49,222 bases of DNA from Escherichia coli (GTDB taxonomy: Bacteria; Pseudomonadota; Gammaproteobacteria; Enterobacterales; Enterobacteriaceae). A model generated the notes under the pieces. That model saw only the letters and a list, made by a program, of their open reading frames with translations, did not search any database and had not been told where the DNA came from. The stretch is from the NCBI RefSeq assembly GCF_003334255.1, contig NZ_QOWU01000039.1. The stretch is one strand, 5' to 3'. Position 1 is the stretch's first letter. Each line of letters begins with the position of its first letter. This document shows, piece after piece, positions 1 to 45,462 of the stretch. The translations under genes were made by a program, and so were the position numbers.

Positions 1-77
1 AATCGGTGGAGCTGCATGACAAAGTCATCGGGCATTATCTGAACATAAAACACTATCAATAAGTTGGAGTCATTACC
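1..77 (+). mobile_element. IS1 right end (partial; window starts inside the element): 3' end of insB plus right terminal inverted repeat ending ...GTTGGAGTCATTACC
   Basis: Frame 3 of bases 3-62 translates to SVELHDKVIGHYLNIKHYQ*, the InsB C-terminus; bases ~55-77 match the IS1 terminal repeat as I recall it. Confidence 0.8.
3..62 (+). CDS. insB: IS1 transposase InsB, C-terminal fragment (5' end outside window)
   Basis: Translation SVELHDKVIGHYLNIKHYQ followed by TAA at 60-62. Confidence 0.75.
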   Translation, partial: SVELHDKVIGHYLNIKHYQ

Positions 78-5571: not shown

Positions 5572-6753
5572 ATGCATAACTCCCCCGCAGTCTCCAGCGC
5601 GAAATCGTTTGACCTGACCTCGACGGCGTTTTTAATCGTTGCCTTTCTCACCGGTATTGCGGGCGCTCTGCAAACCCCGACACTCAGTATTTTTCTTACC
5701 GATGAAGTACATGCCCGTCCGGCGATGGTGGGATTCTTCTTTACCGGCAGCGCTGTCATTGGGATTCTGGTAAGTCAGTTTCTCGCCGGGCGCTCTGATA
5801 AGCGCGGCGATCGCAAATCGCTGATTGTCTTTTGCTGCCTGTTAGGCGTGCTGGCCTGCACCCTTTTTGCCTGGAATCGCAACTACTTTGTTTTGCTATT
5901 CGTTGGCGTCTTTCTTAGCAGCTTTGGCTCGACCGCTAACCCGCAAATGTTTGCCCTTGCCCGTGAACATGCCGACAAAACCGGACGTGAGGCGGTGATG
6001 TTCAGCTCTTTTTTACGCGCTCAGGTTTCACTGGCATGGGTCATTGGCCCACCGCTGGCTTATGCCTTAGCGATGGGTTTCAGCTTTACGGTAATGTATC
6101 TGAGCGCAGCGGTAGCGTTTATTGTTTGCGGTGTGATGGTGTGGCTGTTTTTACCGTCGATGCAAAAAGAGCTTCCGCTGGCGACCGGCACGATCGAAGC
6201 GCCGCGCCGTAACCGTCGCGATACGCTGCTGCTGTTTGTCATTTGTACATTGATGTGGGGCTCGAACAGCCTGTACATCATCAACATGCCGCTATTTATT
6301 ATCAACGAACTGCATCTTCCCGAGAAACTGGCCGGTGTGATGATGGGGACCGCCGCCGGGCTGGAAATCCCGACGATGTTGATTGCCGGATATTTCGCCA
6401 AACGTCTGGGTAAGCGTTTCTTAATGCGCGTTGCTGCCGTGGGTGGCGTCTGTTTTTACGCAGGAATGCTGATGGCGCATTCACCTGTCATTCTGTTGGG
6501 CTTGCAGCTGCTAAATGCTATTTTTATTGGCATTCTGGGCGGCATCGGGATGCTCTATTTTCAGGATCTGATGCCCGGTCAGGCGGGTTCAGCCACCACG
6601 CTCTATACCAACACTTCGCGCGTGGGCTGGATCATCGCAGGATCAGTGGCGGGCATCGTCGCCGAGATCTGGAATTATCACGCTGTGTTCTGGTTTGCGA
6701 TGGTGATGATTATCGCCACTCTGTTTTGCTTACTGCGGATTAAAGATGTTTAA
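5572..6753 (+). CDS. setB: MFS sugar efflux transporter SetB
   Basis: 393-aa ORF with multiple hydrophobic segments; synteny. Confidence 0.9.
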
Positions 6754-7004
6754 GGCGCGGTCAGCATTTCCAGATCGATAAGCCAGGTCATGGCCTGCTG
6801 ACGCGAGTTACCGCACATTTCAGCGCTGGCTTGTAAGCCTGCACAGACTTTCGGTCGCAGTGGCGAGGTGAAAATTTTACAGCGTTGCTGTTCATCAAGC
6901 TGAATGCAGGGCGTATTGGCGGGCTTGCCATCTGGCATACCGGGAATAGGGCTGGAAATTGAAGGGGCAGTGCAACACGCCCCGCAACCCGGACGGCATT
7001 CCAT
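6750..7004 (-). CDS. yeiW: Small cysteine-cluster protein (UPF0153 family), 84 aa
   Basis: Internal start [11 protein letters not shown] chosen within the 128-aa ORF 6750..7136; Cys-rich; expected size 84 aa. Confidence 0.75.
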
Positions 7005-7158
7005 ACGTTGTTCTCTTAAGGTTAACCACCGGATTGATGAGCGCGCACAGTACCACCTTTTTTGCACCAGCAAAAGTGCGAATACCACTTGCCCGAAAGG
7101 CCCGTCGCGAGTACTTTGTCGCGATATTTTTGACATTTTCGACTACAGGAATTTTTCG

Positions 7159-7731
7159 ATGCCAAGAGCGAACGAAATTAAAAAAGGTATGGTACTGAAT
7201 TACAACGGCAAACTGCTGCTGGTTAAGGATATTGATATTCAGTCGCCCACTGCCCGCGGTGCCGCTACGCTGTACAAAATGCGTTTTTCTGATGTCCGTA
7301 CCGGGCTGAAAGTAGAAGAGCGTTTCAAAGGTGATGATATCGTTGACACCGTGACGCTGACCCGCCGTTACGTTGACTTCTCCTATGTCGATGGCAACGA
7401 ATATGTCTTTATGGATAAAGAAGACTATACCCCGTATACCTTCACCAAAGATCAGATTGAAGAAGAGTTGCTGTTTATGCCAGAGGGCGGCATGCCGGAC
7501 ATGCAGGTGCTGACCTGGGACGGTCAACTGCTGGCGCTTGAGCTGCCGCAGACCGTTGATCTGGAAATCGTTGAAACCGCACCAGGCATCAAAGGGGCAT
7601 CTGCCAGCGCCCGTAACAAACCGGCGACATTGAGCACTGGTCTGGTGATTCAGGTACCAGAATACTTAAGCCCGGGCGAAAAAATTCGTATCCATATCGA
7701 AGAACGCCGTTATATGGGGCGTGCTGACTAA
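7159..7731 (+). CDS. yeiP: Elongation factor P-like protein (EfpL/YeiP), 190 aa
   Basis: Start [20 protein letters not shown] within the longer ORF 6904..7731; EF-P fold-like sequence. Confidence 0.9.
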
Positions 7732-7749
7732 CTTCAGCCGCATGCAGAA

Positions 7750-7780
7750 AAGGGATAGCTCAGGCTGTCCCTTTTTTAAT
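7750..7780 (+). terminator. Intrinsic terminator after yeiP
   Basis: Stem GGGATAGC/GCTGTCCC, loop TCAG, followed by TTTTTT. Confidence 0.6.
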
Positions 7781-7953
7781 TTATTATACCAATCTTCTAT
7801 TTTGCGCTTCCTGAACACCTTACGCCCTCAATTTTCACTCGTTGATTGATCGCCCTCACACTTCATCGCATTAACAATCCAGACCAATTTCAATTGCTGT
7901 CATATAACTTTACACTGTCGTTGTTAATTAATCGTTACTAAGACGTGACTCCT

Positions 7954-9420
7954 ATGAATACAATCGCCTCCGTTACGCTCCCGCATCATGTACGCGCTCC
8001 ACGCTATGATCGCCAGCAGTTGCAATCACGTATCGTTCATTTTGGCTTTGGAGCCTTTCACCGCGCTCATCAGGCGTTACTGACCGATCGTGTGCTGAAT
8101 GCCCAGGGCGGCGACTGGGGGATCTGTGAAATCAGCTTGTTCAGCGGTGATCAACTGATGAGCCAGCTCCGCGCACAGAACCATTTATATACCGTGCTGG
8201 AGAAAGGTGCGGACGGCAATCAGGTGATAATTGTCGGTGCCGTTCACGAATGCCTTAATGCAAAACTGGATTCCTTAGCGGCAATTATTGAGAAATTTTG
8301 CGAGCCACAGGTGGCAATTGTTTCCCTGACGATTACCGAAAAAGGCTATTGTATTGACCCGGCCACCGGTGCACTCGACACCAGTAATCCGCGGATTATT
8401 CACGATCTACAAACCCCTGAAGAACCTCACTCCGCACCGGGTATTCTCGTCGAAGCACTGAAACGCCGCCGTGAGCGCGGCCTTACACCGTTTACCGTGC
8501 TCTCCTGCGACAATATTCCCGACAATGGTCATGTGGTGAAAAACGCGGTGCTGGGAATGGCAGAAAAACGTTCGCCAGAACTCGCCGGGTGGATAAAAGA
8601 GCACGTCAGTTTTCCGGGAACCATGGTCGACCGCATTGTTCCGGCTGCAACCGACGAATCACTGGTGGAAATCAGCCAGCATCTGGGGGTGAATGATCCC
8701 TGCGCGATTAGCTGCGAACCGTTTATCCAGTGGGTGGTGGAAGATAACTTCGTCGCTGGGCGTCCTGCCTGGGAAGTCGCAGGTGTACAAATGGTGAATG
8801 ATGTCCTGCCATGGGAAGAGATGAAACTGCGGATGCTTAATGGCAGCCACTCTTTTCTCGCTTATCTGGGTTACCTCTCAGGATTCGCCCATATCAGTGA
8901 TTGCATGCAGGATCGCGCATTTCGCCATGCCGCCAGAACATTAATGCTGGATGAGCAAGCGCCGACACTGCAAATTAAAGATGTCGATTTAACACAATAT
9001 GCGGATAAGTTAATTGCACGTTTTGCTAATCCGGCGCTGAAACATAAGACCTGGCAAATCGCGATGGATGGCAGCCAGAAATTACCGCAACGCATGCTGG
9101 CAGGTATTCGCATACATCAGGGGCGCGAAACGGACTGGTCGTTGCTGGCATTAGGCGTTGCAGGCTGGATGCGTTACGTCAGCGGCGTTGATGATGCCGG
9201 AAATGCCATTGATGTTCGCGATCCGCTTAGCGATAAAATTCGCGAACTTGTTGCGGGCAGCAGCAGTGAACAACGCGTAACCGCCCTGCTTTCCCTGCGT
9301 GAAGTTTTCGGTGATGATCTGCCAGATAACCCGCATTTTGTGCAGGCCATCGAACAAGCCTGGCAACAAATCGTACAATTCGGCGCACATCAGGCGCTAT
9401 TAAACACCCTCAAAATTTAA
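7954..9420 (+). CDS. yeiQ: Putative NAD-dependent oxidoreductase, mannitol dehydrogenase family, 488 aa
   Basis: ATG at 7954 within ORF 7945..9420; synteny. Confidence 0.85.
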   Translation: MNTIASVTLPHHVRAPRYDRQQLQSRIVHFGFGAFHRAHQALLTDRVLNAQGGDWGICEISLFSGDQLMSQLRAQNHLYTVLEKGADGNQVIIVGAVHECLNAKLDSLAAIIEKFCEPQVAIVSLTITEKGYCIDPATGALDTSNPRIIHDLQTPEEPHSAPGILVEALKRRRERGLTPFTVLSCDNIPDNGHVVKNAVLGMAEKRSPELAGWIKEHVSFPGTMVDRIVPAATDESLVEISQHLGVNDPCAISCEPFIQWVVEDNFVAGRPAWEVAGVQMVNDVLPWEEMKLRMLNGSHSFLAYLGYLSGFAHISDCMQDRAFRHAARTLMLDEQAPTLQIKDVDLTQYADKLIARFANPALKHKTWQIAMDGSQKLPQRMLAGIRIHQGRETDWSLLALGVAGWMRYVSGVDDAGNAIDVRDPLSDKIRELVAGSSSEQRVTALLSLREVFGDDLPDNPHFVQAIEQAWQQIVQFGAHQALLNTLKI

Positions 9421-9537
9421 CGATTTCTGCGGTTAAAGCGGATGAAGCTCACCTTCGTCCGCTCTCCCCTTCTCTTTTCTGCCTTTTTTAGCCAGGATTA
9501 ACGCTCAGTTAACTTACCAGAGTATTGCGGAGCCGTT

Positions 9538-10524
9538 GTGACCAGGACCAACCTCATCACCGGTTTTCTCGGCAGCGGGAAAACCACGTCGATTCTTCAT
9601 CTGTTAGCCCATAAAGATCCCAACGAAAAATGGGCGGTACTGGTTAATGAATTTGGGGAAGTCGGAATTGATGGTGCTTTGCTCGCCGATAGCGGCGCAT
9701 TGCTGAAAGAGATCCCCGGCGGCTGCATGTGCTGCGTTAATGGTTTACCCATGCAGGTAGGGTTGAATACCTTACTGCGTCAGGGAAAACCAGACCGCTT
9801 GTTGATAGAGCCGACCGGGCTGGGCCATCCGAAACAGATCCTCGATCTGTTAACCGCACCAGTCTATGAACCGTGGATAGATCTGCGCGCCACCTTGTGC
9901 ATTCTCGATCCGCGCTTGCTGCTGGACGAAAAAAGCGCCAGCAATGAAAACTTCCGTGACCAGCTGGCTGCCGCAGACATCATTGTCGCCAATAAATCCG
10001 ACCGTACGACGCCCGAAAGTGAGCAAGCGCTACAGCGTTGGTGGCAGCAAAATGGTGGCGATCGACAATTAATTCACAGTGAGCATGGGAAAGTTGACGG
10101 TCATCTTCTGGATTTGCCGCGTCGCAATTTAGCCGAGTTGCCCGCCAGCGCCGCGCATTCTCATCAGCATGTCGTGAAAAAAGGGTTAGCAGCGTTAAGC
10201 CTGCCAGAGCATCAACGCTGGCGTCGCAGTCTGAACAGCGGGCAAGGATATCAGGCCTGCGGCTGGATATTCGACGCTGATACGGTATTCGACACCATTG
10301 GCATTCTGGAATGGGCGCGACTTGCACCGGTGGAACGCGTCAAAGGCGTGCTGCGTATTCCCGAAGGGCTGGTGCGAATCAACCGTCAGGGCGATGACCT
10401 GCACATTGAAACGCAAAACGTTGCGCCACCGGACAGCCGTATTGAGCTGATTTCCAGCAGCGAAGCTGACTGGAATGCCTTGCAGAGCGCGCTGTTGAAG
10501 CTTCGTTTAGCGACTACCGCGTAA
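9538..10524 (+). CDS. yeiR: Zinc-binding GTPase, COG0523/CobW family
   Basis: 328-aa ORF with GTG start; P-loop GFLGSGKTT and the CxCC motif GGCMCC. Confidence 0.9.
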   Translation: MTRTNLITGFLGSGKTTSILHLLAHKDPNEKWAVLVNEFGEVGIDGALLADSGALLKEIPGGCMCCVNGLPMQVGLNTLLRQGKPDRLLIEPTGLGHPKQILDLLTAPVYEPWIDLRATLCILDPRLLLDEKSASNENFRDQLAAADIIVANKSDRTTPESEQALQRWWQQNGGDRQLIHSEHGKVDGHLLDLPRRNLAELPASAAHSHQHVVKKGLAALSLPEHQRWRRSLNSGQGYQACGWIFDADTVFDTIGILEWARLAPVERVKGVLRIPEGLVRINRQGDDLHIETQNVAPPDSRIELISSSEADWNALQSALLKLRLATTA

Positions 10525-10562
10525 GGTTGCCTGCGTTTTTCAGTAAGATAATTAGAGAAAAT

Positions 10563-11276
10563 ATGATTAAAAATTTGCCGCAAATAGTGTTGTTGAATAT
10601 TGTCGGCCTCGCGCTGTTTCTTTCCTGGTATATCCCCGTTAATCATGGATTCTGGTTGCCGATTGATGCGGATATTTTTTATTTCTTTAATCAGAAACTG
10701 GTCGAAAGTAAGGCCTTTTTGTGGCTGGTTGCATTGACCAACAATCGCGCCTTCGACGGTTGTTCACTGCTGGCGATGGGTATGTTGATGCTGAGTTTCT
10801 GGCTGAAAGAAAACGCCCCTGGCAGACGACGTATCGTGATTATTGGTCTGGTCATGCTATTAACTGCAGTGGTATTAAACCAGCTGGGTCAGGCATTAAT
10901 TCCTGTAAAACGGGCCAGCCCAACATTGACTTTTACCGATATTAACCGCGTCAGCGAACTGCTCTCTGTTCCCACGAAAGATGCCTCACGAGATAGCTTT
11001 CCCGGCGATCACGGCATGATGCTGCTTATTTTTTCGGCATTCATGTGGCGTTATTTCGGCAAAGTTGCAGGCCTTATCGCCCTTATTATTTTTGTGGTTT
11101 TTGCATTTCCCAGAGTAATGATTGGCGCACACTGGTTTACTGACATCATTGTCGGTTCGATGACCGTGATATTGATCGGTTTGCCCTGGGTGTTGCTGAC
11201 GCCATTAAGTGATCGATTAATCACCTTTTTTGACAAATCACTACCAGGAAAAAACAAACATTTCCAAAACAAATAA
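10563..11276 (+). CDS. lpxT: Lipid A 1-diphosphate synthase (PAP2-family phosphotransferase), 237 aa
   Basis: Start MIKNLPQIVLL inside ORF 10527..11276; membrane protein; synteny. Confidence 0.85.
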   Translation: MIKNLPQIVLLNIVGLALFLSWYIPVNHGFWLPIDADIFYFFNQKLVESKAFLWLVALTNNRAFDGCSLLAMGMLMLSFWLKENAPGRRRIVIIGLVMLLTAVVLNQLGQALIPVKRASPTLTFTDINRVSELLSVPTKDASRDSFPGDHGMMLLIFSAFMWRYFGKVAGLIALIIFVVFAFPRVMIGAHWFTDIIVGSMTVILIGLPWVLLTPLSDRLITFFDKSLPGKNKHFQNK

Positions 11277-24117: not shown

Positions 24118-24510
<393 letters not shown>

Positions 24511-25837: not shown

Positions 25838-26065
25838 ATGCCACAAATTTCCCGCTACAGTGATGAACAGGTTGAACAATTGCTCGCAGAGCTGCTCAAC
25901 GTACTGGAAAAACATAAGGCTCCGACCGACCTTTCCCTGATGGTGTTAGGCAACATGGTCACTAACCTTATCAACACCAGCATTGCCCCGGCCCAACGCC
26001 AGGCAATTGCCAACTCTTTTGCCCGCGCCTTACAGTCCTCTATCAACGAAGACAAAGCGCACTAA
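25838..26065 (+). CDS. yejL: UPF0352 protein YejL
   Basis: 75-aa ORF directly upstream of yejM. Confidence 0.85.
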
Positions 26066-26084
26066 GGGAAACAGATAACAGGTT

Positions 26085-27845
26085 ATGGTAACTCATCGTC
26101 AGCGCTACCGTGAAAAAGTCTCCCAGATGGTCAGTTGGGGGCACTGGTTTGCACTGTTCAATATTCTGCTTTCGCTCGTCATTGGCAGCCGTTACCTGTT
26201 TATCGCCGACTGGCCGACAACGCTTGCTGGTCGCATTTATTCCTACGTAAGCATTATCGGCCATTTCAGCTTCCTGGTGTTCGCCACCTACTTGCTGATC
26301 CTCTTCCCGCTGACCTTTATCGTCGGCTCCCAGAGGCTGATGAGGTTTTTGTCCGTCATTCTGGCAACGGCGGGAATGACGCTATTACTGATCGATAGCG
26401 AAGTCTTTACTCGTTTCCATCTCCATCTTAATCCCATCGTCTGGCAACTGGTTATCAACCCAGACGAAAATGAGATGGCGCGCGACTGGCAGCTGATGTT
26501 CATCAGCGTGCCGGTTATTTTATTGCTTGAACTGGTGTTTGCGACGTGGAGCTGGCAAAAGCTGCGCAGCCTGACGCGTCGTCGACGCTTCGCGCGCCCG
26601 CTGGCCGCATTCTTATTTATCGCCTTTATCGCCTCGCATGTGGTGTATATCTGGGCCGATGCCAACTTCTATCGCCCGATCACCATGCAGCGCGCTAACC
26701 TGCCGCTTTCGTACCCGATGACGGCGCGACGTTTTCTTGAGAAGCATGGTCTGCTTGATGCGCAGGAGTATCAACGCCGTCTTATTGAGCAAGGTAATCC
26801 AGACGCCGTTTCCGTTCAGTATCCGTTAAGCGAACTGCGCTATCGCGATATGGGCACCGGGCAGAATGTGCTGTTGATTACTGTCGATGGCCTGAACTAC
26901 TCACGCTTCGAGAAGCAGATGCCTGCGCTGGCAGGTTTTGCTGAGCAAAATATTTCGTTCACGCGCCATATGAGCTCCGGCAACACTACAGACAACGGCA
27001 TCTTTGGCCTGTTCTATGGCATCTCGCCGAGCTATATGGACGGCATTCTGTCGACCCGTACGCCTGCGGCATTAATTACTGCGCTTAATCAGCAAGGCTA
27101 TCAGCTGGGGTTATTCTCATCAGATGGCTTTACCAGCCCGCTGTATCGCCAGGCATTGTTGTCAGATTTCTCGATGCCGAGCGTACGCACCCAATCCGAC
27201 GAGCAGACCGCCACGCAGTGGATCAACTGGCTGGGACGCTACGCACAAGAAGATAACCGCTGGTTCTCGTGGGTTTCTTTCAATGGTACTAACATTGACG
27301 ACAGCAATCAGCAGGCATTTGCACGGAAATATAGCCGGGCGGCAGGCAATGTCGATGACCAGATCAACCGCGTGCTCAATGCACTGCGTGATTCTGGCAA
27401 ACTGGACAATACGGTGGTGATTATCACTGCCGGTCGGGGTATTCCACTGAGCGAAGAGGAAGAAACCTTTGACTGGTCCCACGGTCATCTGCAGGTGCCA
27501 TTAGTGATTCACTGGCCAGGCACGCCGGCGCAGCGTATTAATGCTCTGACTGATCATACCGATCTGATGACGACGCTGATGCAACGCCTGCTACATGTCA
27601 GCATACCTGCCAGCGAATATTCGCAAGGTCAGGATTTGTTCAACCCTCAACGCCGTCATTACTGGGTTACCGCAGCGGATAACGATACGCTGGCAATTAC
27701 CACCCCGAAAAAGACGCTGGTACTGAACAATAACGGTAAATACCGCACTTACAACTTACGTGGTGAAAGAGTGAAAGATGAAAAACCACAGTTAAGTTTG
27801 TTATTGCAAGTGCTGACAGACGAGAAGCGTTTTATCGCTAACTGA
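26085..27845 (+). CDS. yejM: Inner-membrane protein YejM (PbgA/LapC): N-terminal TM domain plus periplasmic sulfatase-like domain
   Basis: 586-aa ORF; N-terminal hydrophobic helices; synteny upstream of proL. Confidence 0.9.
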   Translation: MVTHRQRYREKVSQMVSWGHWFALFNILLSLVIGSRYLFIADWPTTLAGRIYSYVSIIGHFSFLVFATYLLILFPLTFIVGSQRLMRFLSVILATAGMTLLLIDSEVFTRFHLHLNPIVWQLVINPDENEMARDWQLMFISVPVILLLELVFATWSWQKLRSLTRRRRFARPLAAFLFIAFIASHVVYIWADANFYRPITMQRANLPLSYPMTARRFLEKHGLLDAQEYQRRLIEQGNPDAVSVQYPLSELRYRDMGTGQNVLLITVDGLNYSRFEKQMPALAGFAEQNISFTRHMSSGNTTDNGIFGLFYGISPSYMDGILSTRTPAALITALNQQGYQLGLFSSDGFTSPLYRQALLSDFSMPSVRTQSDEQTATQWINWLGRYAQEDNRWFSWVSFNGTNIDDSNQQAFARKYSRAAGNVDDQINRVLNALRDSGKLDNTVVIITAGRGIPLSEEEETFDWSHGHLQVPLVIHWPGTPAQRINALTDHTDLMTTLMQRLLHVSIPASEYSQGQDLFNPQRRHYWVTAADNDTLAITTPKKTLVLNNNGKYRTYNLRGERVKDEKPQLSLLLQVLTDEKRFIAN

Positions 27846-27877
27846 TTAATTATAAATCAGTTAGCGAAATATCTTAC

Positions 27878-27905
27878 TTGCAATCGGTGTGGAAAACGGT
27901 AGTAT
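27878..27905 (+). promoter_or_regulatory. Putative sigma-70 promoter of proL (TTGCAA -16 bp- TAGTAT)
   Basis: Hexamers read directly, 16-bp spacing, about 15 nt upstream of the tRNA 5' end; AT-rich UP-like region upstream. Confidence 0.4.
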
Positions 27906-27919
27906 TAGCAGCCACGAGT

Positions 27920-27996
27920 CGGCACGTAGCGCAGCCTGGTAGCGCACCGTCATGGGGTGTCGGGGGTCGGAGGTTCAAATCCTCTCGTGCCGACCA
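27920..27996 (+). tRNA. proL: tRNA-Pro (anticodon GGG)
   Basis: 77 nt CGGCACG...CGUGCCGACCA; acceptor stem pairs 7 of 7; T-loop GGTTCAAATCC; anticodon loop AUGGGGU; encoded CCA. Confidence 0.95.
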
Positions 27997-28004
27997 AAAA
28001 TCCC

Positions 28005-28037
28005 AAGAAAAAACCAACCCTTACGGTTGGTTTTTTT
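28005..28037. terminator. Bidirectional intrinsic terminator between proL and yejO
   Basis: Stem CCAACC/GGTTGG, loop CTTAC, flanked by A-run upstream and T-run downstream. Confidence 0.7.
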
Positions 28038-28098
28038 ATATCTGCAATTAATTCGATAAACAGACCGTGACACATCACAGCCTGTTTATTTTCTGTTA

Positions 28099-30690
28099 TC
28101 AGAACGTCCAGACCACACCCGCCTGAGTATTCCACGGCGATTCTACCCCTGCGCCATTGCCATAGCTGACTGACAAATGACCGCTTAACGTCGGGGTAAA
28201 CGATGACCTTATACCAGCCTGATAAACGCCACTGGTTCCAGCCACATCATTATTAAATTTGCCATCGTCATTAACTTTCACCTGGTTAGAATCGGCGTAT
28301 TCCTGACGCACGGCCGCTTTCAGCCAGGGTTCCAGCGTCGTACCGTTTTGCAGGTCCATGTGATAGCTTACCGCCGTTCCCGCTTCAGCGCGTAATATCC
28401 GGGTATTTCCCACATCCGCGCGCATGCCGTTTGATAACGTGTAGTCCTGACCATCTGTGGTAAAGCCGGTAAAGGCCAGATAGGGTCTAACACTCCACAA
28501 TCCGTCAACCCAACGGAACCCGCTCTCAACATGAGCACCCGCGCCGTTACTATTGTAATCGCCAAACGCTGTTGCCCCATTACTCATCTTGCCATGGATG
28601 GTGTTGGCAAAACGGTCAACTTTCACCACCCCATCAACATAGGCACCGTTCTGATGCTCCCAACCGGCATAAGCCCCCAGGGTATAGCTATCGATATTAC
28701 CTTTGCCGCCGCGATCAAAACCAATATCAGAATGAGAGTAACCAAAGATCAAGCCGCAAATTGTACTGCTTTCTTCACGGGAGAAACGGCTATCGATACC
28801 GAGCGTCAGGCCCGTCAATGTTTGCTCAAAACCAGCTCCCGCATCAGTGGTCACGTTGTTGCGGGTGTTAATTGCCGAACTCCACATCGCCGTATCGTAA
28901 CTAACGCCTTTTACGCTACCAAGACGCTCACGCACGGTGTCCAGTTCTGCATCAAATACCAGCGGTTGTGCGGCCGCCATATTCAGCACATCAGTGGTTG
29001 AAGGGGTAATTTGCGCGCGATTCTCTGCCAGACTCCAGCTATGGTTGCCATTATCCAGCAAGGTATATTCATACGTACCGATATCAACAACGCCTCCGGC
29101 ATTGCCCAACGTAAATGCAGCATCACCGCCGCCCGTTGTTACCAGTGTAAGGCTATCTCCTGCTGCCGGGCTGGCACCGGTGTCCGTCACGAATATTTTG
29201 AAATCACCTGTTGCCTGACCGGTGACGTTGAGCTGATCGCTCTGATGATTAGCCATATCGGTACGCATATAAAAATTGCCGTTTCCCGACAGGGTATTGG
29301 TGGTCAACGTAATGAAATTTTCCGCACTTGCCGTCACTGATGAACGAGTCACTGGCTCATCCATCATAATCACATTTGCGTCAGACATCGCAAGGTTGGC
29401 TAAGTTGAGGAGGGTGTTTTGGTTCGTCGTAGTGATATCGGCAATGATGGTCCATACGCTATTTTCGAGCGAAACGTCCGCTTTGCTGGTATCCACGGCA
29501 CCATGCGTTCTAAAAGAAGCGCCCTCAGAAACCACTACCTTACCCACCAACATTGCGGGTGCATAATTTATTTGCGGCTTCATGACCTCAAGAATGCCAT
29601 CATTCCCTCTGACTGAAACGTTAACCATTGTGCCAGCCCAGACGTTAGCGCGGCCATTGTTGATAACCATATTTTCAGAGATGGCTTTTGAGGAATACGT
29701 GATACTTCCATTCTGATATGATCGACCGAGATCATATACCGCATTTGCCTGCACTTTCGTACCAGTATCCTTTCCCAGCGATTGCATAGTGGCATGCTTA
29801 TCAAGGATAGTATCAATGGCCTGCGTGTCCTCCATAACAATGAGCCCGGAACCATCATCCAGTTCATAATTTTTTGACACACCATCTTTTATACTAAATT
29901 GGCCTTTACTGTTTGGACCACTCACTTCCAGCGCATTCGTTGAGACAATTAATTTTCCGCCTGCTTTTTTATCAACGCCAGTTACAGTCCCGCCATCCAT
30001 AACCTCCAGTAAGCCGCCACTATCTACAGTGGTATTATAAGCGAAGTCATTTTCTTCAACTCGCAAACTTCCGCCGTTTTCCAACAACATATTATTAGCA
30101 ATACCATTCTTGATATCGAACTGACCGAGACGGTTTGTTCCGAATACCTCCATGGCCCGCGTGGTTGTTTTAATAGCACCGCCTGCTTTCTGATCTACCG
30201 CAAATGCAAATCCCCCCTCTTTAACCTCCAGTAGTCCTCCCTTTTCGATAGCGACAAAGACGGCCCCCCCATCTTTTTCAACGATTAAGCGCCCGCCTTT
30301 AATCGTGGTATCATTCGCTGCGCCATAAACCTGTAGCACACCATTATTGAGCGTAGTCTGGTTTGCCGCGCCACCCATTTGAACAATTTGATAACCGTCA
30401 TTTAATACTGAGTATTCTGCGGCGCCATTCATTTCAATGTACTGATACCCTCCGTTAATTTCAGTATTATTACTTACACCAAATTCTTTTATATGCTGTT
30501 CTCCGCCAGGATTGATTTTCGTATTATTGGCGGTCCCATAAACCAGCTGGATATCTTTTTCCAGGACAACACCATCAACTGTCTCACCATACTCAACAGT
30601 TGATGCCAATGCTATGGGTGAATATAACGCTGTAGCCACCAGAACAGATATTGCGGAACGACAAAGAGAAACAGAACCAGATTGATGCAT
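28099..30690 (-). CDS. yejO: Autotransporter (type Va) adhesin-like outer-membrane protein; intact 863-aa ORF
   Basis: N-terminal signal peptide; repetitive Gly/Asn-rich beta-helix passenger; C-terminal beta-barrel ending ...GVVWTF; lower GC than neighbours. Confidence 0.85.
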   Translation of the reverse strand: MHQSGSVSLCRSAISVLVATALYSPIALASTVEYGETVDGVVLEKDIQLVYGTANNTKINPGGEQHIKEFGVSNNTEINGGYQYIEMNGAAEYSVLNDGYQIVQMGGAANQTTLNNGVLQVYGAANDTTIKGGRLIVEKDGGAVFVAIEKGGLLEVKEGGFAFAVDQKAGGAIKTTTRAMEVFGTNRLGQFDIKNGIANNMLLENGGSLRVEENDFAYNTTVDSGGLLEVMDGGTVTGVDKKAGGKLIVSTNALEVSGPNSKGQFSIKDGVSKNYELDDGSGLIVMEDTQAIDTILDKHATMQSLGKDTGTKVQANAVYDLGRSYQNGSITYSSKAISENMVINNGRANVWAGTMVNVSVRGNDGILEVMKPQINYAPAMLVGKVVVSEGASFRTHGAVDTSKADVSLENSVWTIIADITTTNQNTLLNLANLAMSDANVIMMDEPVTRSSVTASAENFITLTTNTLSGNGNFYMRTDMANHQSDQLNVTGQATGDFKIFVTDTGASPAAGDSLTLVTTGGGDAAFTLGNAGGVVDIGTYEYTLLDNGNHSWSLAENRAQITPSTTDVLNMAAAQPLVFDAELDTVRERLGSVKGVSYDTAMWSSAINTRNNVTTDAGAGFEQTLTGLTLGIDSRFSREESSTICGLIFGYSHSDIGFDRGGKGNIDSYTLGAYAGWEHQNGAYVDGVVKVDRFANTIHGKMSNGATAFGDYNSNGAGAHVESGFRWVDGLWSVRPYLAFTGFTTDGQDYTLSNGMRADVGNTRILRAEAGTAVSYHMDLQNGTTLEPWLKAAVRQEYADSNQVKVNDDGKFNNDVAGTSGVYQAGIRSSFTPTLSGHLSVSYGNGAGVESPWNTQAGVVWTF

Positions 30691-31009
30691 TGAGCTTTCA
30701 TCCTATGAAATTAATTGCTGTTAAAAGCATTGGGTACAGAAAATACCCATAGCTCCATACCCGGAGTCAGTTTTTAAAAACTGTTTAAAGAAATGCACAA
30801 GTATTGTGATTGATTTTTTAGTTGTTTTTCTTGATGAGAAGCTGATGCAAAATTCCGTCTTTATAATGAAAATGATGCCAAAGCGAACGACAAGGTTGTA
30901 GTTTTCACTACATGTCCATACATAAAATGGGGTAACATTCACGCGCCTGGTAGCGTTACCAACGCTACGCTCAAACATAATGATTCTAATAAAACCTCAG
31001 GAGACTACT

Positions 31010-31657
31010 ATGCCTGAAGCAACGCCTTTTCAGGTGATGATTGTGGATGATCATCCACTTATGCGACGCGGTGTTCGTCAGTTACTGGAGCTTGATCCTG
31101 GCTTTGAAGTGGTCGCCGAAGCGGGCGACGGCGCGAGCGCTATCGATCTGGCGAATAGACTGGATATCGACGTGATCTTGCTGGATCTCAATATGAAAGG
31201 TATGAGTGGCCTGGATACTCTCAATGCCTTGCGCAGGGATGGCGTTACCGCGCAAATTATTATCCTGACCGTATCCGATGCCTCCAGCGATGTCTTTGCG
31301 CTGATAGACGCAGGCGCAGACGGTTATCTGTTGAAAGACAGCGACCCGGAAGTATTGCTGGAAGCGATTCGTGCCGGAGCGAAAGGCAGCAAAGTCTTTA
31401 GCGAACGCGTCAATCAGTACTTACGTGAACGTGAAATGTTTGGCGCGGAAGAAGATCCCTTCAGCGTGCTGACGGAGCGCGAGCTGGATGTTCTGCACGA
31501 GCTGGCACAGGGGCTGTCAAATAAACAGATTGCCTCGGTGTTGAATATTTCCGAGCAGACAGTAAAAGTACATATTCGCAATCTGCTGCGTAAACTCAAT
31601 GTCCGCTCACGCGTGGCGGCCACCATTCTGTTCCTGCAACAACGCGGGGCACAATAA
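31010..31657 (+). CDS. narP: Nitrate/nitrite response regulator NarP (NarL/FixJ family), 215 aa
   Basis: Start MPEATPFQVMIVDDHPLMRRG at 31010; receiver domain plus LuxR-type HTH. Confidence 0.95.
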   Translation: MPEATPFQVMIVDDHPLMRRGVRQLLELDPGFEVVAEAGDGASAIDLANRLDIDVILLDLNMKGMSGLDTLNALRRDGVTAQIIILTVSDASSDVFALIDAGADGYLLKDSDPEVLLEAIRAGAKGSKVFSERVNQYLREREMFGAEEDPFSVLTERELDVLHELAQGLSNKQIASVLNISEQTVKVHIRNLLRKLNVRSRVAATILFLQQRGAQ

Positions 31658-31710
31658 AAATAGCCCGATGGATTTATCATCGGGCTGAGATTTATGACAA
31701 ACGCAAAACT

Positions 31711-31809
31711 GCCTGATGCGCTACGCTTATCAGGCCTACGTGGATCGATCAATTTATTGAATTTACACAATTTTGTAGGCCGGATAAGGCGTTCACGCCG
31801 CATCCGGCA
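31711..31809. repeat. Pair of REP elements (BIME-like) in the narP 3' UTR, flanked by two similar hairpins (31662-31686 and 31839-31861)
   Basis: GCCTGATGCGCTACGCTTATCAGGCCTAC and GTAGGCCGGATAAGGCGTTCACGCCGCATCCGGC. Confidence 0.75.
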
Positions 31810-31838
31810 TAAACTAAGCGCACTTTGTCAACAGTCTA

Positions 31839-31873
31839 GCCCGATGGCATCACCATCGGGCCTCTTTTTATTT
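31839..31873 (+). terminator. Intrinsic terminator, probably for narP; its T-tract overlaps the ccmH stop codon
   Basis: Stem GCCCGATGG/CCATCGGGC, loop CATCA, followed by CTCTTTTTATTT. Confidence 0.6.
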
Positions 31874-32920
31874 ACTCTCCTGCGGCGACAAATGTTGCAT
31901 CGCCTGCGCGATACTACGTTCAATCACCGCACGGCGAGTATCGTTGGCAGGTAAGAGTTTCAACATCATCTCCCACGCGGCAACGGCTTCGCCAAATCGC
32001 TGCTGCTCAAAGGCATTAAACGCATACATGCTTAGCACACGGATATTGCTATGGTCCGTTCTCACCAGCTGACGTAGCAGTTCACCGCCGAGGCGGTTGT
32101 CGTTGGGATCAGATGAACGAGTCAACGCTTCAGCGTATCCCAGTGCAGCATCACTGTTTTTCGGATCGAGGCGATACGCAGTGGCGTATGCATCGGTGGC
32201 GATACTGGCGTTACCCAGCGCCATGCCAACGCGGCCCAACATAATCCAGCCTTCTATATCTCCCGGATTTTTTTGCAGTTGAGTACGCATCCCCAGCGCA
32301 AGACGCGACATCTCTTCTTCGTTGAGCGGATCGGCTTTCGGATCCAGCGCCCTGTCCAGCAACGCCGGAGCCTGTGCCGTGGCCTGCTGCCAGATTTTCA
32401 CCTGCTGATAATTGCCAGTCTGGTAGTAGCTGACGCCAGCCACAATTAACGCCACCACAATACCCGGCAGATAAACAACATATCCGGCACGCTTACCTTC
32501 CGGCACGCTTTGTTCAGGAAACGCTTCCGGCACCACGCGTACCCGACGCCGCGAGCGGGCGTATATGACCCAACCGCCAATGCCAATAGCCACTACTGGC
32601 AGCACCCACAGCAGCACGGTCAGCGGCGTTAACGGCGGATCGTAAGTGACGAAGTTGCCGTAACGCGCCACCATATAATCGACAATCTCTTTTTTACTTT
32701 TACCTTCCTGCATCAGTTCATACACTTTCTGACGCAGGTCGGTGGCAATCATCGAGTTGGAATCGGCAATGCTGTTGTTCTGGCATTTCGGGCAGCGCAG
32801 TTCTTCAGTGAGCTGACGGAACTGTTGTTCCTGTGCTTCATCTTTAAACTGCAACACATCGATGGTCGCCAGCGCTGAGCCGGAGATCATCAGCATCAGC
32901 ACGCCCAATAAAAACCTCAT
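31868..32920 (-). CDS. ccmH: Cytochrome c-type biogenesis protein CcmH
   Basis: 350-aa ORF; CxxC motif (LRCPKCQ); TPR-like C-terminal part; last gene of ccm operon. Confidence 0.95.
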   Translation of the reverse strand: MRFLLGVLMLMISGSALATIDVLQFKDEAQEQQFRQLTEELRCPKCQNNSIADSNSMIATDLRQKVYELMQEGKSKKEIVDYMVARYGNFVTYDPPLTPLTVLLWVLPVVAIGIGGWVIYARSRRRVRVVPEAFPEQSVPEGKRAGYVVYLPGIVVALIVAGVSYYQTGNYQQVKIWQQATAQAPALLDRALDPKADPLNEEEMSRLALGMRTQLQKNPGDIEGWIMLGRVGMALGNASIATDAYATAYRLDPKNSDAALGYAEALTRSSDPNDNRLGGELLRQLVRTDHSNIRVLSMYAFNAFEQQRFGEAVAAWEMMLKLLPANDTRRAVIERSIAQAMQHLSPQESK

Positions 32921-33474
32921 TGTGCGGCCTCCTTACTGTATTTCTCCCACAGCGGCTTGATCTCTTCTTCCCAGACGCGAGGATTCAGATCGCCCGCATG
33001 GCGATAGCGAATGATGCCGTTGCCGTCAATAAGAAACGTTTCTGGCGCGCCATAGACACCGAGATCCAGCCCTAACATGCCATCGCCATCAAACAGGCTT
33101 AGCGCGTAAGGATTGCCCAGCTCTTTCAGCCAGCTGATTGCCTTCTGGCGATCGTCTTTATAGTTCATGCCGACCACGCGGATGCCCTGCGCAGAAAGCT
33201 GATTCAGATATTGATGTTCCGCACGGCAGGTCGGACACCAGGTCGCCCAGACGTTAAGCAGTACTGGTTTGCCCTGAGTCAGCACATCCGCCTGATAAAA
33301 CTGCCCCGGATTGTCCAGTGATTCGAGACGAAACTTCGGCACAGGCTTGCCAATGAGCGCCGATTCCAGATTGGTCGGATCATCCCCTTCGGCATTACGC
33401 GCCAGCTGCCACAGCAGCGCCGCGGCAATCGCCAAGAAGATAATCAACGGAATTAACAATACTTTGCGCTTCAT
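32917..33474 (-). CDS. ccmG: Thiol:disulfide interchange protein CcmG/DsbE
   Basis: 185-aa ORF; thioredoxin motif WCPTC. Confidence 0.95.
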   Translation of the reverse strand: MKRKVLLIPLIIFLAIAAALLWQLARNAEGDDPTNLESALIGKPVPKFRLESLDNPGQFYQADVLTQGKPVLLNVWATWCPTCRAEHQYLNQLSAQGIRVVGMNYKDDRQKAISWLKELGNPYALSLFDGDGMLGLDLGVYGAPETFLIDGNGIIRYRHAGDLNPRVWEEEIKPLWEKYSKEAAQ

Positions 33475-35414
33475 ACGGCCTCCGGCGCAGTTTTTTGCGG
33501 ACTCACGCGCTTACGATAGCGAGGATCAAACAGACACAGCAGTCCGCCCAACGCCATCATCAGCCCGCCCGCCCAAATCCAGCGAACAAATGGTTTGTAG
33601 TAAAGACGCACGGCCCACGCGCCGTTTTCCAGCTCTTCACCGAGGGCCGCGTACAGGTCACGCGTGATGCCGCCGTCAATTGCCGCTTCGGTCATCATCG
33701 ACCCGGCAGTGTTGTAATAACGTTTTTCCGCATACAGCACCGTTTCCGGCTTGCCATCGCGCGTTACGCCGATAGTCGCCACACCGCCACGCCAGTTCGG
33801 GCCAGTCACCTCTTTGACATCACGGAAGGTGAAGCGATATTCATGAATATCGACGCTATCGCCGGACTTCATGCGCACATCACGCTCAACGCTATAGTTC
33901 TGGCTAAAGGCAATGCCAACAATTGTCACTGCCAGCCCAAGGTGAGCCGCCACCATCCCCCAATAACTGAAGGTGGTTTTCGTGCCGCGTGAAATACGTA
34001 GCGCAGCTTCCGCAATTGCCAGCACCGCAATCCAGCAGGCCATTGCCAGGCCGAGCACCGTCATCGCCACAACTTTGCTTTCGAACAGCCACGGCAACAG
34101 CAGCGACAGCACCAGCGTAGAGATGAAGGCGATAATCAATAAATTGCGGATCTTACGCGGGCGATCCCGCCCCCAGCGCACCAGAGGACCGACACCAAGC
34201 AGTAGCGCAAACGGCACCATCAGCCAGGTAAACATGGTGTTGAAGAACGGTTCGCCAATCGAAATACTGCCCAGTCCCAGTTGCTTATGCACCAACGGCA
34301 GCAGCGTCCCCAGCAACACCACCAGCATCGCAGCGACCAGCAAAACATTGTTCGCTAACAGCAAAGATTCCCGCGACCACAGCGCATTGTTTACGCGTGA
34401 GCGAACTTTGTGTCCACGCGCGGCAAACAGCAGCAGCGAACCGCCAATCACCAGCACCATAAAGGCGAGGATAAACATACCGCGCGCCGGATCAGACGCA
34501 AACGCGTGTACCGATACCAGCACGCCGGAACGCACGAGGAAAGTCCCCAACAGACACAACGAGAAGGCACTGATTGCCAGCAGTAATGTCCACGCTTTGA
34601 AGCTGGCGCGTTGTTCAGTGACCGCCAGTGAGTGCATCAGCGCAGTCCCCACCAGCCACGGCATAAACGAGGCGTTTTCTACCGGATCCCAGAACCACCA
34701 GCCACCCCAGCCGAGTTCGTAATAGGCCCATGCGGAACCGAGCACGATGCCGAGCGTCAGGAAGATCCACGCTGCCAGCGTCCACGGACGAGTAAAACGC
34801 GCATAAGTGCTGTCCAGACGCCCGCTCAGCAAAGAAGCAATGGCAAAAGCAAACGCCACCGAGAAACCCACGTACCCCATATAAAGCAGAGGCGGATGGA
34901 AGATCAGCCCCGGATCCTGCAATAGCGGGTTAAGATCGCGACCTTCAATCGGGAAGTTCGGCAACGTGCGAGAGAACGGGTTAGAGGTAAAGAGAATGAA
35001 CAGCAAAAAGCCGACACTGACCATCCCCATTATCGCCAGTACACGGGCCACAATATCCAGCGGAATACGCTGACTAAAAATCGCCACCGCAAAGGTCCAG
35101 CCGCTCATCAGCAGCACCCACAGCAGTAGCGAGCCTTCATGCGCGCCCCAGGTAGCCGCCACGCGATACCACACCGGAAGCTGGGTATTGGAGTTGCTGG
35201 CAACATAGGTGACGGTGAAGTCGTTGACCACGAAAGCATTGACCAGCACCAGAAATGCGCCAGCCACAGACATAAACAGCAGCCAGGCAAACAAGCGGGA
35301 AGACGCCATCATGCGCGCATCTCCGCGCGCCACGCCCCATAGCGGATACACGGACAGCAGCAGCGCAATTCCCAGCGCCAGGCACAGCAGTCCGTTACCA
35401 ATTTCTGGCATCAT
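33471..35414 (-). CDS. ccmF: Cytochrome c heme lyase subunit CcmF
   Basis: 647-aa polytopic membrane ORF; operon position. Confidence 0.95.
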
Positions 35415-44905: not shown

Positions 44906-45462
44906 TGCCGTGAAGTGCGGCACCCCGTAGGTCAGACAAGGCGGTCACGCCGCATCCGACATCCAACGCCCGAGCCGGTTGCCTGATGCGACGCTGGCGC
45001 GTCTTATCAGGCCTACACCGCTGTGAAGTGCTCCACCCCGTAGGTCGGATAAGGCGGTTACGCCGCATCCGACATCTAACGCCCAAGCCGGTTGCCTGAT
45101 GCGACGCTGGCGCGTCTTATCAGGCCTACACCGCTGTGAAGTGCTCCACCCCGTAGGTTGGATAAGGCGGTTACGCCGCATCCGACATCCAACGTCCGAG
45201 CCGGTTGCCTGATGCGACGCTGGCGCGTCTTATCAGGCCTACACCGCTGTGAAGTGCTCCACCCCGTAGGTCGGATAAGGCGGTTACGCCGCATCCGACA
45301 TCTAACGCCCAAGCCGGTTGCCTGATGCGACGCTGGCGCGTCTTATCAGGCCTACACCGCTGTGAAGTGCTCCACCCCGTAGGTTGGATAAGGCGGTTAC
45401 GCCGCATCCAACATCTAACGCCCGAGCCGGTTGCCTGATGCGACGCTGGCGCGTCTTATCAG
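44906..45462. repeat. Tandem array of about 4.9 copies of a ~113-bp BIME unit (each unit is two REP sequences in opposite orientation) between eco and mqo
   Basis: Units begin at 44906, 45021, 45134, 45247 and 45360; read directly; they generate five overlapping spurious 67-122-aa minus-strand ORFs. Confidence 0.85.

Follow-up and report, generated by a model that had tools for sequence, protein, structure and literature searches.

An uninterrupted yejO allele, predicted to encode a classical type Va autotransporter, between proL and narP in an Escherichia coli strain close to K-12

Introduction

The closest described counterpart of the gene considered here is yejO of Escherichia coli K-12 MG1655 (b2190), an 'adhesin-like autotransporter YejO' that is annotated as a pseudogene and is disrupted by IS5 (PMC11005336), whereas the RefSeq label in many other genomes is 'autotransporter YejO'. 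That wild E. coli carry an intact yejO and that the K-12 copy is disrupted is already known. Searches of the literature for yejO in connection with autotransporters, adhesins or H-NS returned no study showing that YejO is made, exported or adhesive; what they returned were mentions of the K-12 pseudogene, studies of IS5, gene-presence surveys and an expression ranking. The promoter, PyejO, has been termed 'uncharacterized' (PMC11677980).

Here, we describe the yejO locus in a 49,222-nucleotide stretch of an E. coli genome (contig NZ_QOWU01000039.1), referred to below as the window, and follow up a first-pass annotation that had singled out its intact reading frame. Our analysis indicates that this gene is an ordinary, ancestral, uninterrupted chromosomal allele, relative to which the K-12 pseudogene is derived, and that its product is, by its predicted domains, a classical type Va autotransporter, with a mechanism that would be the one typical of the family. 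We assign this reading as a whole a probability of about 0.9.

Results

The gene on the minus strand between proL and narP (Table 1) is yejO, and it is intact: both the list of open reading frames and the sequence itself give a frame of 863 amino acids that starts with ATG and contains zero internal stops, as had been claimed at first pass. The gene order, yejM/lapC, proL, yejO, narP, ccmH, is that of MG1655, and this matching chromosomal position, along with near-identity to the K-12 fragments, identifies the gene as the ortholog of b2190. The proposed neighbourhood of a tRNA gene also held, the yejO stop codon lying 102 bp from proL, and the spacer towards narP, put at about 320 bp without an insertion sequence, measures 319 bp and is IS-free in the window.

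Table 1. Features of the proL–yejO–narP region, in window coordinates
Feature	Position	Strand	Evidence
proL, tRNA-Pro (anticodon GGG)	27920..27996	+	ARAGORN, Rfam tRNA, MG1655 annotation b2189
proL–yejO spacer with two strong hairpins	27997..28098	.	RNA fold and sequence
yejO CDS, intact, 863 codons plus stop	28099..30690	-	ORF list
Predicted autotransporter beta-barrel translocator, residues 602-863	28102..28887	-	Pfam PF03797, TIGR01414
Rare missense R645C, early barrel strand	28758..28758	-	Genome comparison
Pertactin-like C-terminal passenger/autochaperone region, residues 431-555	29026..29400	-	Pfam PF03212, E = 3.2e-45
N-terminal passenger, AIDA-type beta-helix repeats, residues 30-330	29701..30603	-	Pfam, TIGR04415, PDB sequence matches
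Two tandem 74-aa modules, residues 165-238 and 239-312	29755..30198	-	Direct module comparison
Predicted signal peptide, residues 1-29 (MHQSGSVSLCRSAISVLVATALYSPIALA, then STVEYGE)	30604..30690	-	Read from translation
4-bp site ATAA, codons 22/23, duplicated on either side of IS5K in MG1655, uninterrupted here	30624..30627	.	Junction mapping vs NC_000913.3
yejO–narP divergent intergenic region, 319 bp, GC 36%	30691..31009	.	MG1655-identical
narP, nitrate/nitrite response regulator, 215 aa	31010..31657	+	MG1655 b2193 mapped onto window

Comparison with MG1655 locates the K-12 lesion precisely. Junction mapping against NC_000913.3 puts IS5K (1195 bp, plus the 4-bp duplication) inside yejO at codon 22/23, within the part encoding the signal peptide and 63-67 nt past the ATG; when the element and the duplication are removed and the MG1655 fragments joined, the two genes differ by 1 base. 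Across aligned blocks of 4919 and 2877 bp, there are 2 and 3 differences, respectively, of which only 1 lies within yejO. The two copies share the proL–narP locus and the spacer and differ in that MG1655 has IS5K at codon 22/23 and Arg645, whereas the window copy has no IS5K and Cys645. The first-pass statement that MG1655 carries an IS5-bearing yejO pseudogene is borne out by this mapping and by the literature (PMC11005336), whereas the position given for the element, between yejO and narP, proved wrong: it sits inside the reading frame. MG1655 has the very same 319-bp spacer, without a single base difference and without an insertion sequence, and an identical, IS5-free MG1655 spacer was literally the outcome that had been named beforehand as counting against the annotation. 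Therefore, the 'intact promoter' of the first-pass annotation is not a difference between the window strain and K-12. Spacer identity likewise rules out a distinctive promoter region in the window, and what distinguishes the window strain from K-12 is the continuity of the coding sequence, not the promoter.

The overall similarity to MG1655 (99.97% identity over ~45 kb) raises the question of whether the intact gene could be a reverted pseudogene, in a K-12 derivative from which IS5K was precisely excised. However, the window differs from MG1655 by 12 substitutions dispersed outside the repeat array, has one naRNA4 unit less and carries at psuK an IS1 that is absent from that strain; the segment 27850-31700 is identical to that of the enterotoxigenic (ETEC) strain H10407 except for base 28758; and the uninterrupted state occurs in more than 5000 natural genomes. 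The differences from MG1655 and the identity with H10407 effectively refute precise excision, to which we attach a negligible probability. The source strain is phylogroup-A-like and very close to both K-12 and ETEC H10407.

The only unusual feature of the window yejO is the substitution R645C. Base 28758 is A here, where MG1655, H10407 and all the other genomes examined have G; codon 645 consequently reads TGC (Cys) instead of CGC (Arg). The exact window protein is present in public databases, named 'autotransporter YejO', in 12 contigs only, and it differs by R645C alone from the common wild-type YejO, also of 863 aa (e.g. WP_000554226.1; ETEC H10407, NCTC86). The homologous position is occupied by Val in Vag8 and Ala in BrkA. 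The substitution is probably neutral.

Across the species, 251 bp around the IS5K target site are uninterrupted in 5009 of the 5426 complete E. coli genomes. Thus, an uninterrupted yejO is the species norm and K-12 is the exception, and the intactness that the first-pass annotation had considered noteworthy is in fact common. Split copies, among the matches listed, come from laboratory strains (K-12 CETR1G40 and BM28). The 90%-identity cluster to which the window protein belongs has 16,859 members, mostly of 863 aa, and among complete genomes sampled evenly, some 60-70% keep a full-length gene of the same length. In about one-fifth of the genomes sampled, the locus is reduced to a remnant with two large deletions, and in other strains insertion sequences are found within yejO (IS1 twice, and IS1203) as well as in its flanking spacers (IS4 and IS2). 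Because yejO is so often degraded in nature, through deletion remnants, IS1 and IS1203, it is dispensable, and many backgrounds may carry it in a non-functional or cryptic form.

IS5 in K-12, IS1 twice, IS1203, IS4 and IS2 in the flanks, the deletion remnants and alleles with different module numbers would together be the evidence that yejO and its flanks are repeatedly targeted for inactivation in E. coli. We consider this rather improbable. A dispensable, AT-rich gene prone to receiving insertion sequences could just as well be lost neutrally and leave the same pattern. If repeated targeting were real, strains in certain niches might pay a cost for expressing the surface protein, for instance because it is recognised by the immune system or by phages, and the intact R645C allele would represent one of the alternative states of yejO as selection fluctuates.

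The architecture read at first pass from the translation, namely, a signal peptide, a beta-helix passenger and a C-terminal barrel, was borne out by inspection of the translation and by Pfam domains. By inspection, residues 1-29 comprise a basic n-region (R11), a hydrophobic core and an A-L-A motif ahead of the predicted cleavage site. AIDA repeats (PF16168) span approximately residues 50-315, with strong matches at 184-245 (E = 7.7e-24) and 257-315 (E = 1.5e-21) and 4 weak copies besides, and the TIGR04415 repeat matches 3 stretches (65 bits vs a cutoff of 30). These two models recover the strand-loop-strand repeat of ~19 aa, the corresponding periodicity (lag 18-19) being weak in the autocorrelation of the passenger. 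The sequence matches in the PDB include the Ag43 and TibA passengers for the N-terminal passenger and pertactin (1dab) and Vag8 (7akv) for the pertactin-like region. The translocator domain matches PF03797 over residues 602-841 (E = 9.4e-46) and TIGR01414 with 371 bits against a cutoff of 16; alignments with the BrkA barrel (3qq2) and Vag8 reach the last residue, and the protein ends in ...GVVWTF, the terminal Phe providing the C-terminal aromatic residue of the outer-membrane protein beta-signal. A single polypeptide thus holds the passenger between signal peptide and barrel, with a pertactin-like autochaperone junction, and by this predicted architecture YejO is a classical type Va (AIDA-I-type) autotransporter.

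Two similar modules of about 70 aa had also been reported in the passenger, and direct comparison confirms two tandem units of 74 aa, starting with VDQKAGG at residue 165 and VDKKAGG at residue 239. They are identical at 29 of 74 positions without gaps (39%), a value as high as which was reached in none of 10,000 shuffles, and the passenger autocorrelation is positive at lag 74 only; self-BLASTP of YejO for internal repeats returned the self-hit alone. The natural allele of enteroaggregative (EAEC) strain 042 encodes 789 aa, exactly 74 residues fewer, with the gap aligned to residues 168-241.

The base composition of yejO is uneven. The whole coding sequence has a GC content of 48.1% vs 51.9% for the window, with the signal peptide and passenger at 44% (39% at third codon positions, GC3) and the barrel third at 52%, like the neighbouring genes. 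The claim that yejO is AT-richer than its neighbours accordingly stands for the signal peptide, the passenger and the upstream spacer (36%) and fails for the barrel third. The AT-richness of the 5′ half and the promoter region is compatible with the earlier idea of horizontal acquisition, in which yejO is the cargo of an old genomic island integrated at proL. Indeed, proL does serve as an integration site, as indicated by a gtrIC prophage remnant at this tRNA gene in Shigella flexneri 1c (PMC4924310) and by phage or P4-like replication genes located directly after yejO in E. albertii.

The E. albertii locus, however, argues against island cargo. A scan of the genome collection for yejO relatives returned this single locus, exact-peptide seeding reaching close relatives only. 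In Salmonella, the proL–narP interval harbours SPI-12. The E. albertii locus holds an 862-aa ortholog adjoining narP, with a barrel 94% identical to that of the window protein and a diverged passenger; narP itself is 97.7% identical between the two. Homology with the window ends 7 bp past the 3′ end of proL (window 28003), which places the foreign DNA of E. albertii between proL and yejO. Because the ortholog holds the same narP-adjacent position, any acquisition of yejO predates the split of E. coli and E. albertii. Moreover, the present-day elements enter between proL and yejO and leave yejO on the chromosomal side (E. albertii; PMC4924310). In the window, the segment between proL and narP holds yejO alone, by the ORF list and the MG1655 annotation, with no integrase, tRNA 3′-end direct repeat or other island feature accompanying it, and the barrel third is of ordinary composition. 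Low GC content in passenger domains is also common among vertically inherited adhesin genes. Taken together, island cargo appears unlikely. Instead, given the E. albertii ortholog beside narP and the insertion of present-day elements between proL and yejO, yejO behaves as a conserved flank.

Both spacers were examined for signals. In the yejO-sense strand, the proL–yejO spacer folds with -36.3 kcal/mol (z = -7.15), and 0 of 200 shuffled sequences were as stable. The hairpin nearest proL has a CCAACC-loop-GGTTGG stem with an A-run and a T-run on either side and is probably a bidirectional intrinsic terminator for proL and yejO, a putative assignment from fold and sequence. The divergent spacer must hold the promoters of both yejO and narP. 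It contains no match to the sigma-70 consensus at the scan threshold, and the region as a whole has 3 promoter-like sites vs 6.2 in shuffled sequences. An Rfam scan of the whole window at gathering thresholds, covering regulatory RNAs in the spacers, returned tRNA-Pro alone near yejO.

A compendium of 3,376 RNA-seq sets from K-12 places yejO at about rank 4501 among some 4507 genes (PMC10392735), a figure that was measured downstream of IS5K and may understate promoter activity. Because this rank is near the bottom and the promoter region is identical, expression in the window strain is probably low under laboratory conditions. The gene could be intact yet silent or cryptic, on its way to loss by drift and repressed, for example, by H-NS bound to the AT-rich DNA of the spacer and 5′ half, in which case its intactness would have no phenotypic consequence in the source strain. 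The low GC content of the spacer and low GC3 of the passenger, the lack of a consensus promoter in the spacer, the K-12 expression rank and the repeated, independent inactivation across the species are all compatible with silence. Against it stand the retention of a full-length copy in roughly 60-70% of evenly sampled complete genomes and the E. albertii open reading frame, in which a conserved barrel combined with a diverged passenger is the pattern of a selected surface protein, not of neutral decay. On balance, we give silence somewhat less than an even chance.

Discussion

The findings presented here correct a common impression drawn from K-12: the pseudogene is confined to the K-12 lineage, the intact gene being standard in wild E. 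coli, and the K-12 lesion falls in signal-peptide codons rather than in the promoter. Under the favoured reading, that of an ancestral allele, the K-12 pseudogene would have arisen by insertion of IS5K at codon 22/23. Any wild-type strain, including that of the window, could supply an intact yejO for adhesion work, which makes this use not specific to the window, and the importance of the intact gene here goes little beyond bookkeeping.

If YejO follows the scheme of its family, the 29-residue signal peptide would take it through Sec, and the C-terminal domain would form an outer-membrane beta-barrel with the assistance of BAM. The passenger would then be threaded to the surface, folding from the pertactin-like autochaperone region toward the N-terminus into a right-handed beta-helix, so that the N-terminal AIDA-type rungs, including the two 74-aa modules, would be the exposed face. 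We infer secretion, surface display and adhesion from family membership, and the exposed face is, by analogy, presumably adhesive or self-associating. Some type Va passengers are enzymes, as in the SPATEs and the esterase autotransporters, and a protease, lipase or toxin might be imagined here as well. Nevertheless, Pfam and NCBIfam show AIDA-type repeats and a pertactin-like domain alone, catalytic domains such as peptidase S6 or lipase being absent, and by sequence the best matches of known structure are two adhesins, Ag43 and TibA; we consider a non-adhesive passenger very unlikely.

Among known autotransporters, the junction and barrel of YejO align over ~400 residues with Bordetella Vag8 (7akv, E = 2e-36), BrkA (barrel 3qq2) and pertactin. 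The N-terminal passengers are unlike, however, and these Bordetella complement-resistance and adhesion factors are not orthologs of YejO. The BafA family model (NF040482) scores 208 bits, below its cutoff of 700, and covers the C-terminal region only. Within E. coli, the models for Ag43/Cah (NF033177, 130 bits) and AIDA-I (NF033176, 73 bits) both score far below their NCBIfam equivalog cutoffs of 1200. No glycosyltransferase ORF, and hence no heptosyltransferase of the aah/tibC type, is present in 26000-33500, the neighbours of yejO being proL and narP. Another parallel is with the self-associating autotransporters (SAAT) Ag43, AIDA-I and TibA, with which YejO shares the predicted type Va architecture, the AIDA-type strand-loop-strand beta-helix repeats, the pertactin-like junction and the 12-strand-type barrel domain, and from which it differs in its much shorter passenger.

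An intact yejO is the ordinary wild-type state

We retrieved MG1655 (NC_000913.3) and aligned it to the window. In the MG1655 annotation, yejO (b2190) is a pseudogene of two joined fragments with IS5K between them, and it has been described as an IS5-disrupted pseudogene (PMC11005336). The alignment falls into two blocks sharing 4 bp (ATAA, 30624-30627), the target-site duplication on either side of the 1195-bp IS5K. The insertion site falls 64-67 nt past the yejO ATG, at codon 22/23 in the signal-peptide coding region, so that the K-12 IS5 lies within the gene and not, as the first-pass annotation had implied, between yejO and narP. Across 30624-31023 there are no differences, and neither sequence has any IS in the yejO-narP spacer; an identical, IS5-free spacer in MG1655, which that annotation had named as an observation that would refute it, is literally what the alignment gives. 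Nor does the intact promoter region mark this strain, being the same in K-12. The proposed contrast is thus right in substance, with yejO intact in the window and IS5-disrupted in K-12, but wrong in detail.

The coordinates and gene names proposed earlier agree with the ORF listing, the ARAGORN tRNA and the position of narP (see table): the complete 863-aa frame runs unbroken from ATG to stop, and the spacer, put at about 320 bp, measures 319 bp, as left by a narP start at 31010. RefSeq starts yejO of ETEC H10407 17 codons downstream of the MG1655 ATG (equivalent to window 30640), yielding 846 rather than 863 aa. Because the shorter form would lack the signal peptide's basic n-region, the ATG at 30690 seems preferable. 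The 102 bp that separate proL from the yejO stop codon contain two very stable hairpins (fold z = -7.15). One of them, with an A-run on one side and a T-run on the other, resembles a bidirectional terminator, and strain SY033 has an IS4 inserted in it.

Coordinates of features in the window, and of IS insertions in genomes otherwise identical to it (window numbering)
Feature	Position	Strand	Remarks
IS1 end	1-77		terminal inverted repeat
L25 leader (RF03131)	24179-24204		upstream of rplY
proL, tRNA-Pro(GGG)	27920-27996	plus	ARAGORN; sole tRNA of window
Hairpins	27997-28098		proL to yejO stop codon
yejO ORF	28099-30690	minus	863 aa, ATG start, no internal stops (ORF listing)
yejO-narP intergenic region	30691-31009		319 bp
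narP	start 31010		divergent from yejO, upstream of ORF
Tandem array	44910-45462		eco to mqo
IS4	28016-28028		proL-yejO spacer, strain SY033
IS1203	28421-28426		inside yejO
IS1X2	30046-30054		inside yejO
IS1A	30104-30113		inside yejO
IS2	30882-30887		yejO-narP spacer, natural strain N18-04097; yejO intact

An intact yejO is not unusual; the gene, known but functionally uncharacterised, is ordinarily intact in wild-type strains. Searching 5426 complete E. coli genomes with a 251-bp probe that has the IS5K site at its centre gave an unbroken match in 5009, and the split copies in the sampled listing belong to the laboratory strains K-12 CETR1G40 and BM28. Coverage of the full gene reaches 80% or more in 4282 genomes. 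From this ranking, 60 records were drawn at even steps and inspected: about 40 hold full-length yejO in one piece, three of these probably frameshifted, given a length off by one base, whereas an IS splits the gene in four, a 2370-bp allele is present in three and about 13 retain remnants. The remnant type, with two deletions (window 28129-28760 and 29215-30218, as in strain R3), is annotated as a pseudogene by RefSeq and agrees with the reported absence of yejO from ST131 (PMC5654935). In EAEC 042, the ORF is also intact but encodes 789 aa; exactly 74 residues are missing, the gap aligning to residues 168-241. The exact window protein is present in public databases as 'autotransporter YejO', and the 90%-identity cluster to which it belongs has 16,859 members. 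An IS does occur in the yejO-narP spacer of at least one natural strain, N18-04097, but it is IS2, not IS5.

Base composition and origin of the locus

The suggestion that yejO is AT-richer than its neighbours holds for the 5′ part, passenger (GC 44%, GC3 39%) and spacer (GC 36%), but not for the barrel, at 52% against 51.9% for the window. E. albertii NBRC 107761 encodes an 862-aa ortholog directly adjoining narP; yejO was therefore already in place here when the two species diverged. Overall identity to the window protein is 76%; by region, the AIDA passenger reaches 70%, the middle segment 34% and the barrel 94%, whereas NarP, CcmH and CcmG are 96-99% identical. The exposed part of YejO therefore evolves fast. 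Ancient acquisition is possible.

Homology to E. albertii ends at 28003, 7 bp past the proL 3′ end. Right after E. albertii yejO (6683-10586 of that locus, L002), phage or P4-like genes take the place of proL. They encode the C-terminal part of a phage-type primase, an SSB, a FinO/ProQ-like protein and a small activator of transcription. The nearest 4 kb hold no tRNA, and yejO is probably cut off from proL there by an integrated element. A gtrIC prophage remnant likewise occupies the interval from tRNA-Pro to yejO in S. flexneri 1c (PMC4924310). Thus proL is an active integration site, but yejO lies on its chromosomal side.

Other features of the window

The IS1 end, whose reverse complement begins GGTAATGACTCCAACTTATTGATAG, joins the psuK/psuG junction at base 78 (MG1655 2258369). 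This IS1 is absent from MG1655, and the top matches include no complete genome in which this junction is present in one piece. The tandem array (113-bp unit, 4.9 copies, 95% match) gives five Rfam naRNA4/CssrE (RF02564) hits and is one unit longer in MG1655. The L25 leader is as expected for E. coli.

YejO architecture, expression and the R645C variant

Residues 1-29, which end in A-L-A, resemble a Sec signal peptide, and the C-terminal residue is Phe. Pfam places two strong AIDA repeats at 184-245 and 257-315, with weaker ones nearer the N-terminus, followed by Pertactin (431-555) and the Autotransporter beta-domain (602-841). The two modules described earlier, beginning VDQKAGG (residue 165) and VDKKAGG (239), are real: they share 29 of 74 residues, a value matched in none of 10,000 shuffles, and within the passenger a positive autocorrelation peak occurs at lag 74 alone. 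Just two NCBIfam models exceed their cutoffs: TIGR01414, the generic barrel (371 bits, cutoff 16), and TIGR04415, the strand-loop-strand repeat (65 bits, cutoff 30). Among solved structures, the passenger matches Ag43 and TibA, the junction pertactin and Vag8, and the barrel Vag8 and BrkA. By these matches, YejO classifies as a standard AIDA-I-type, type Va autotransporter. Orthology to Ag43, AIDA-I or BafA was rejected, the scores against the NCBIfam Ag43/Cah, AIDA-I and BafA equivalog models being far below cutoff; no heptosyltransferase gene adjoins yejO.

YejO would thus be exported through Sec, its barrel inserted with the help of BAM and the passenger translocated, with beta-helix folding starting at the pertactin-like autochaperone region; the exposed surface, which is presumably adhesive or self-associating, would consist of the N-terminal AIDA rungs. 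Our literature search found no published test of YejO function. Laboratory expression is probably low: yejO ranks about 4501st of about 4507 genes in 3,376 K-12 RNA-seq sets (PMC10392735), although this figure, measured downstream of IS5K, is an imperfect guide. The spacer contains no consensus sigma-70 match, and H-NS silencing is a reasonable guess.

At 28758, the window has A where every complete genome compared (MG1655, H10407, 2018-18.25PC and five IS-bearing strains) has G, changing Arg645 in an early barrel strand to Cys, which would be the sole cysteine of mature YejO. All other sampled 863-aa cluster members have Arg; the exact Cys645 protein occurs on 12 public contigs, so that the allele is real, if rare. 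The substitution is probably tolerated, since Vag8 has Val and BrkA has Ala at the aligned position.
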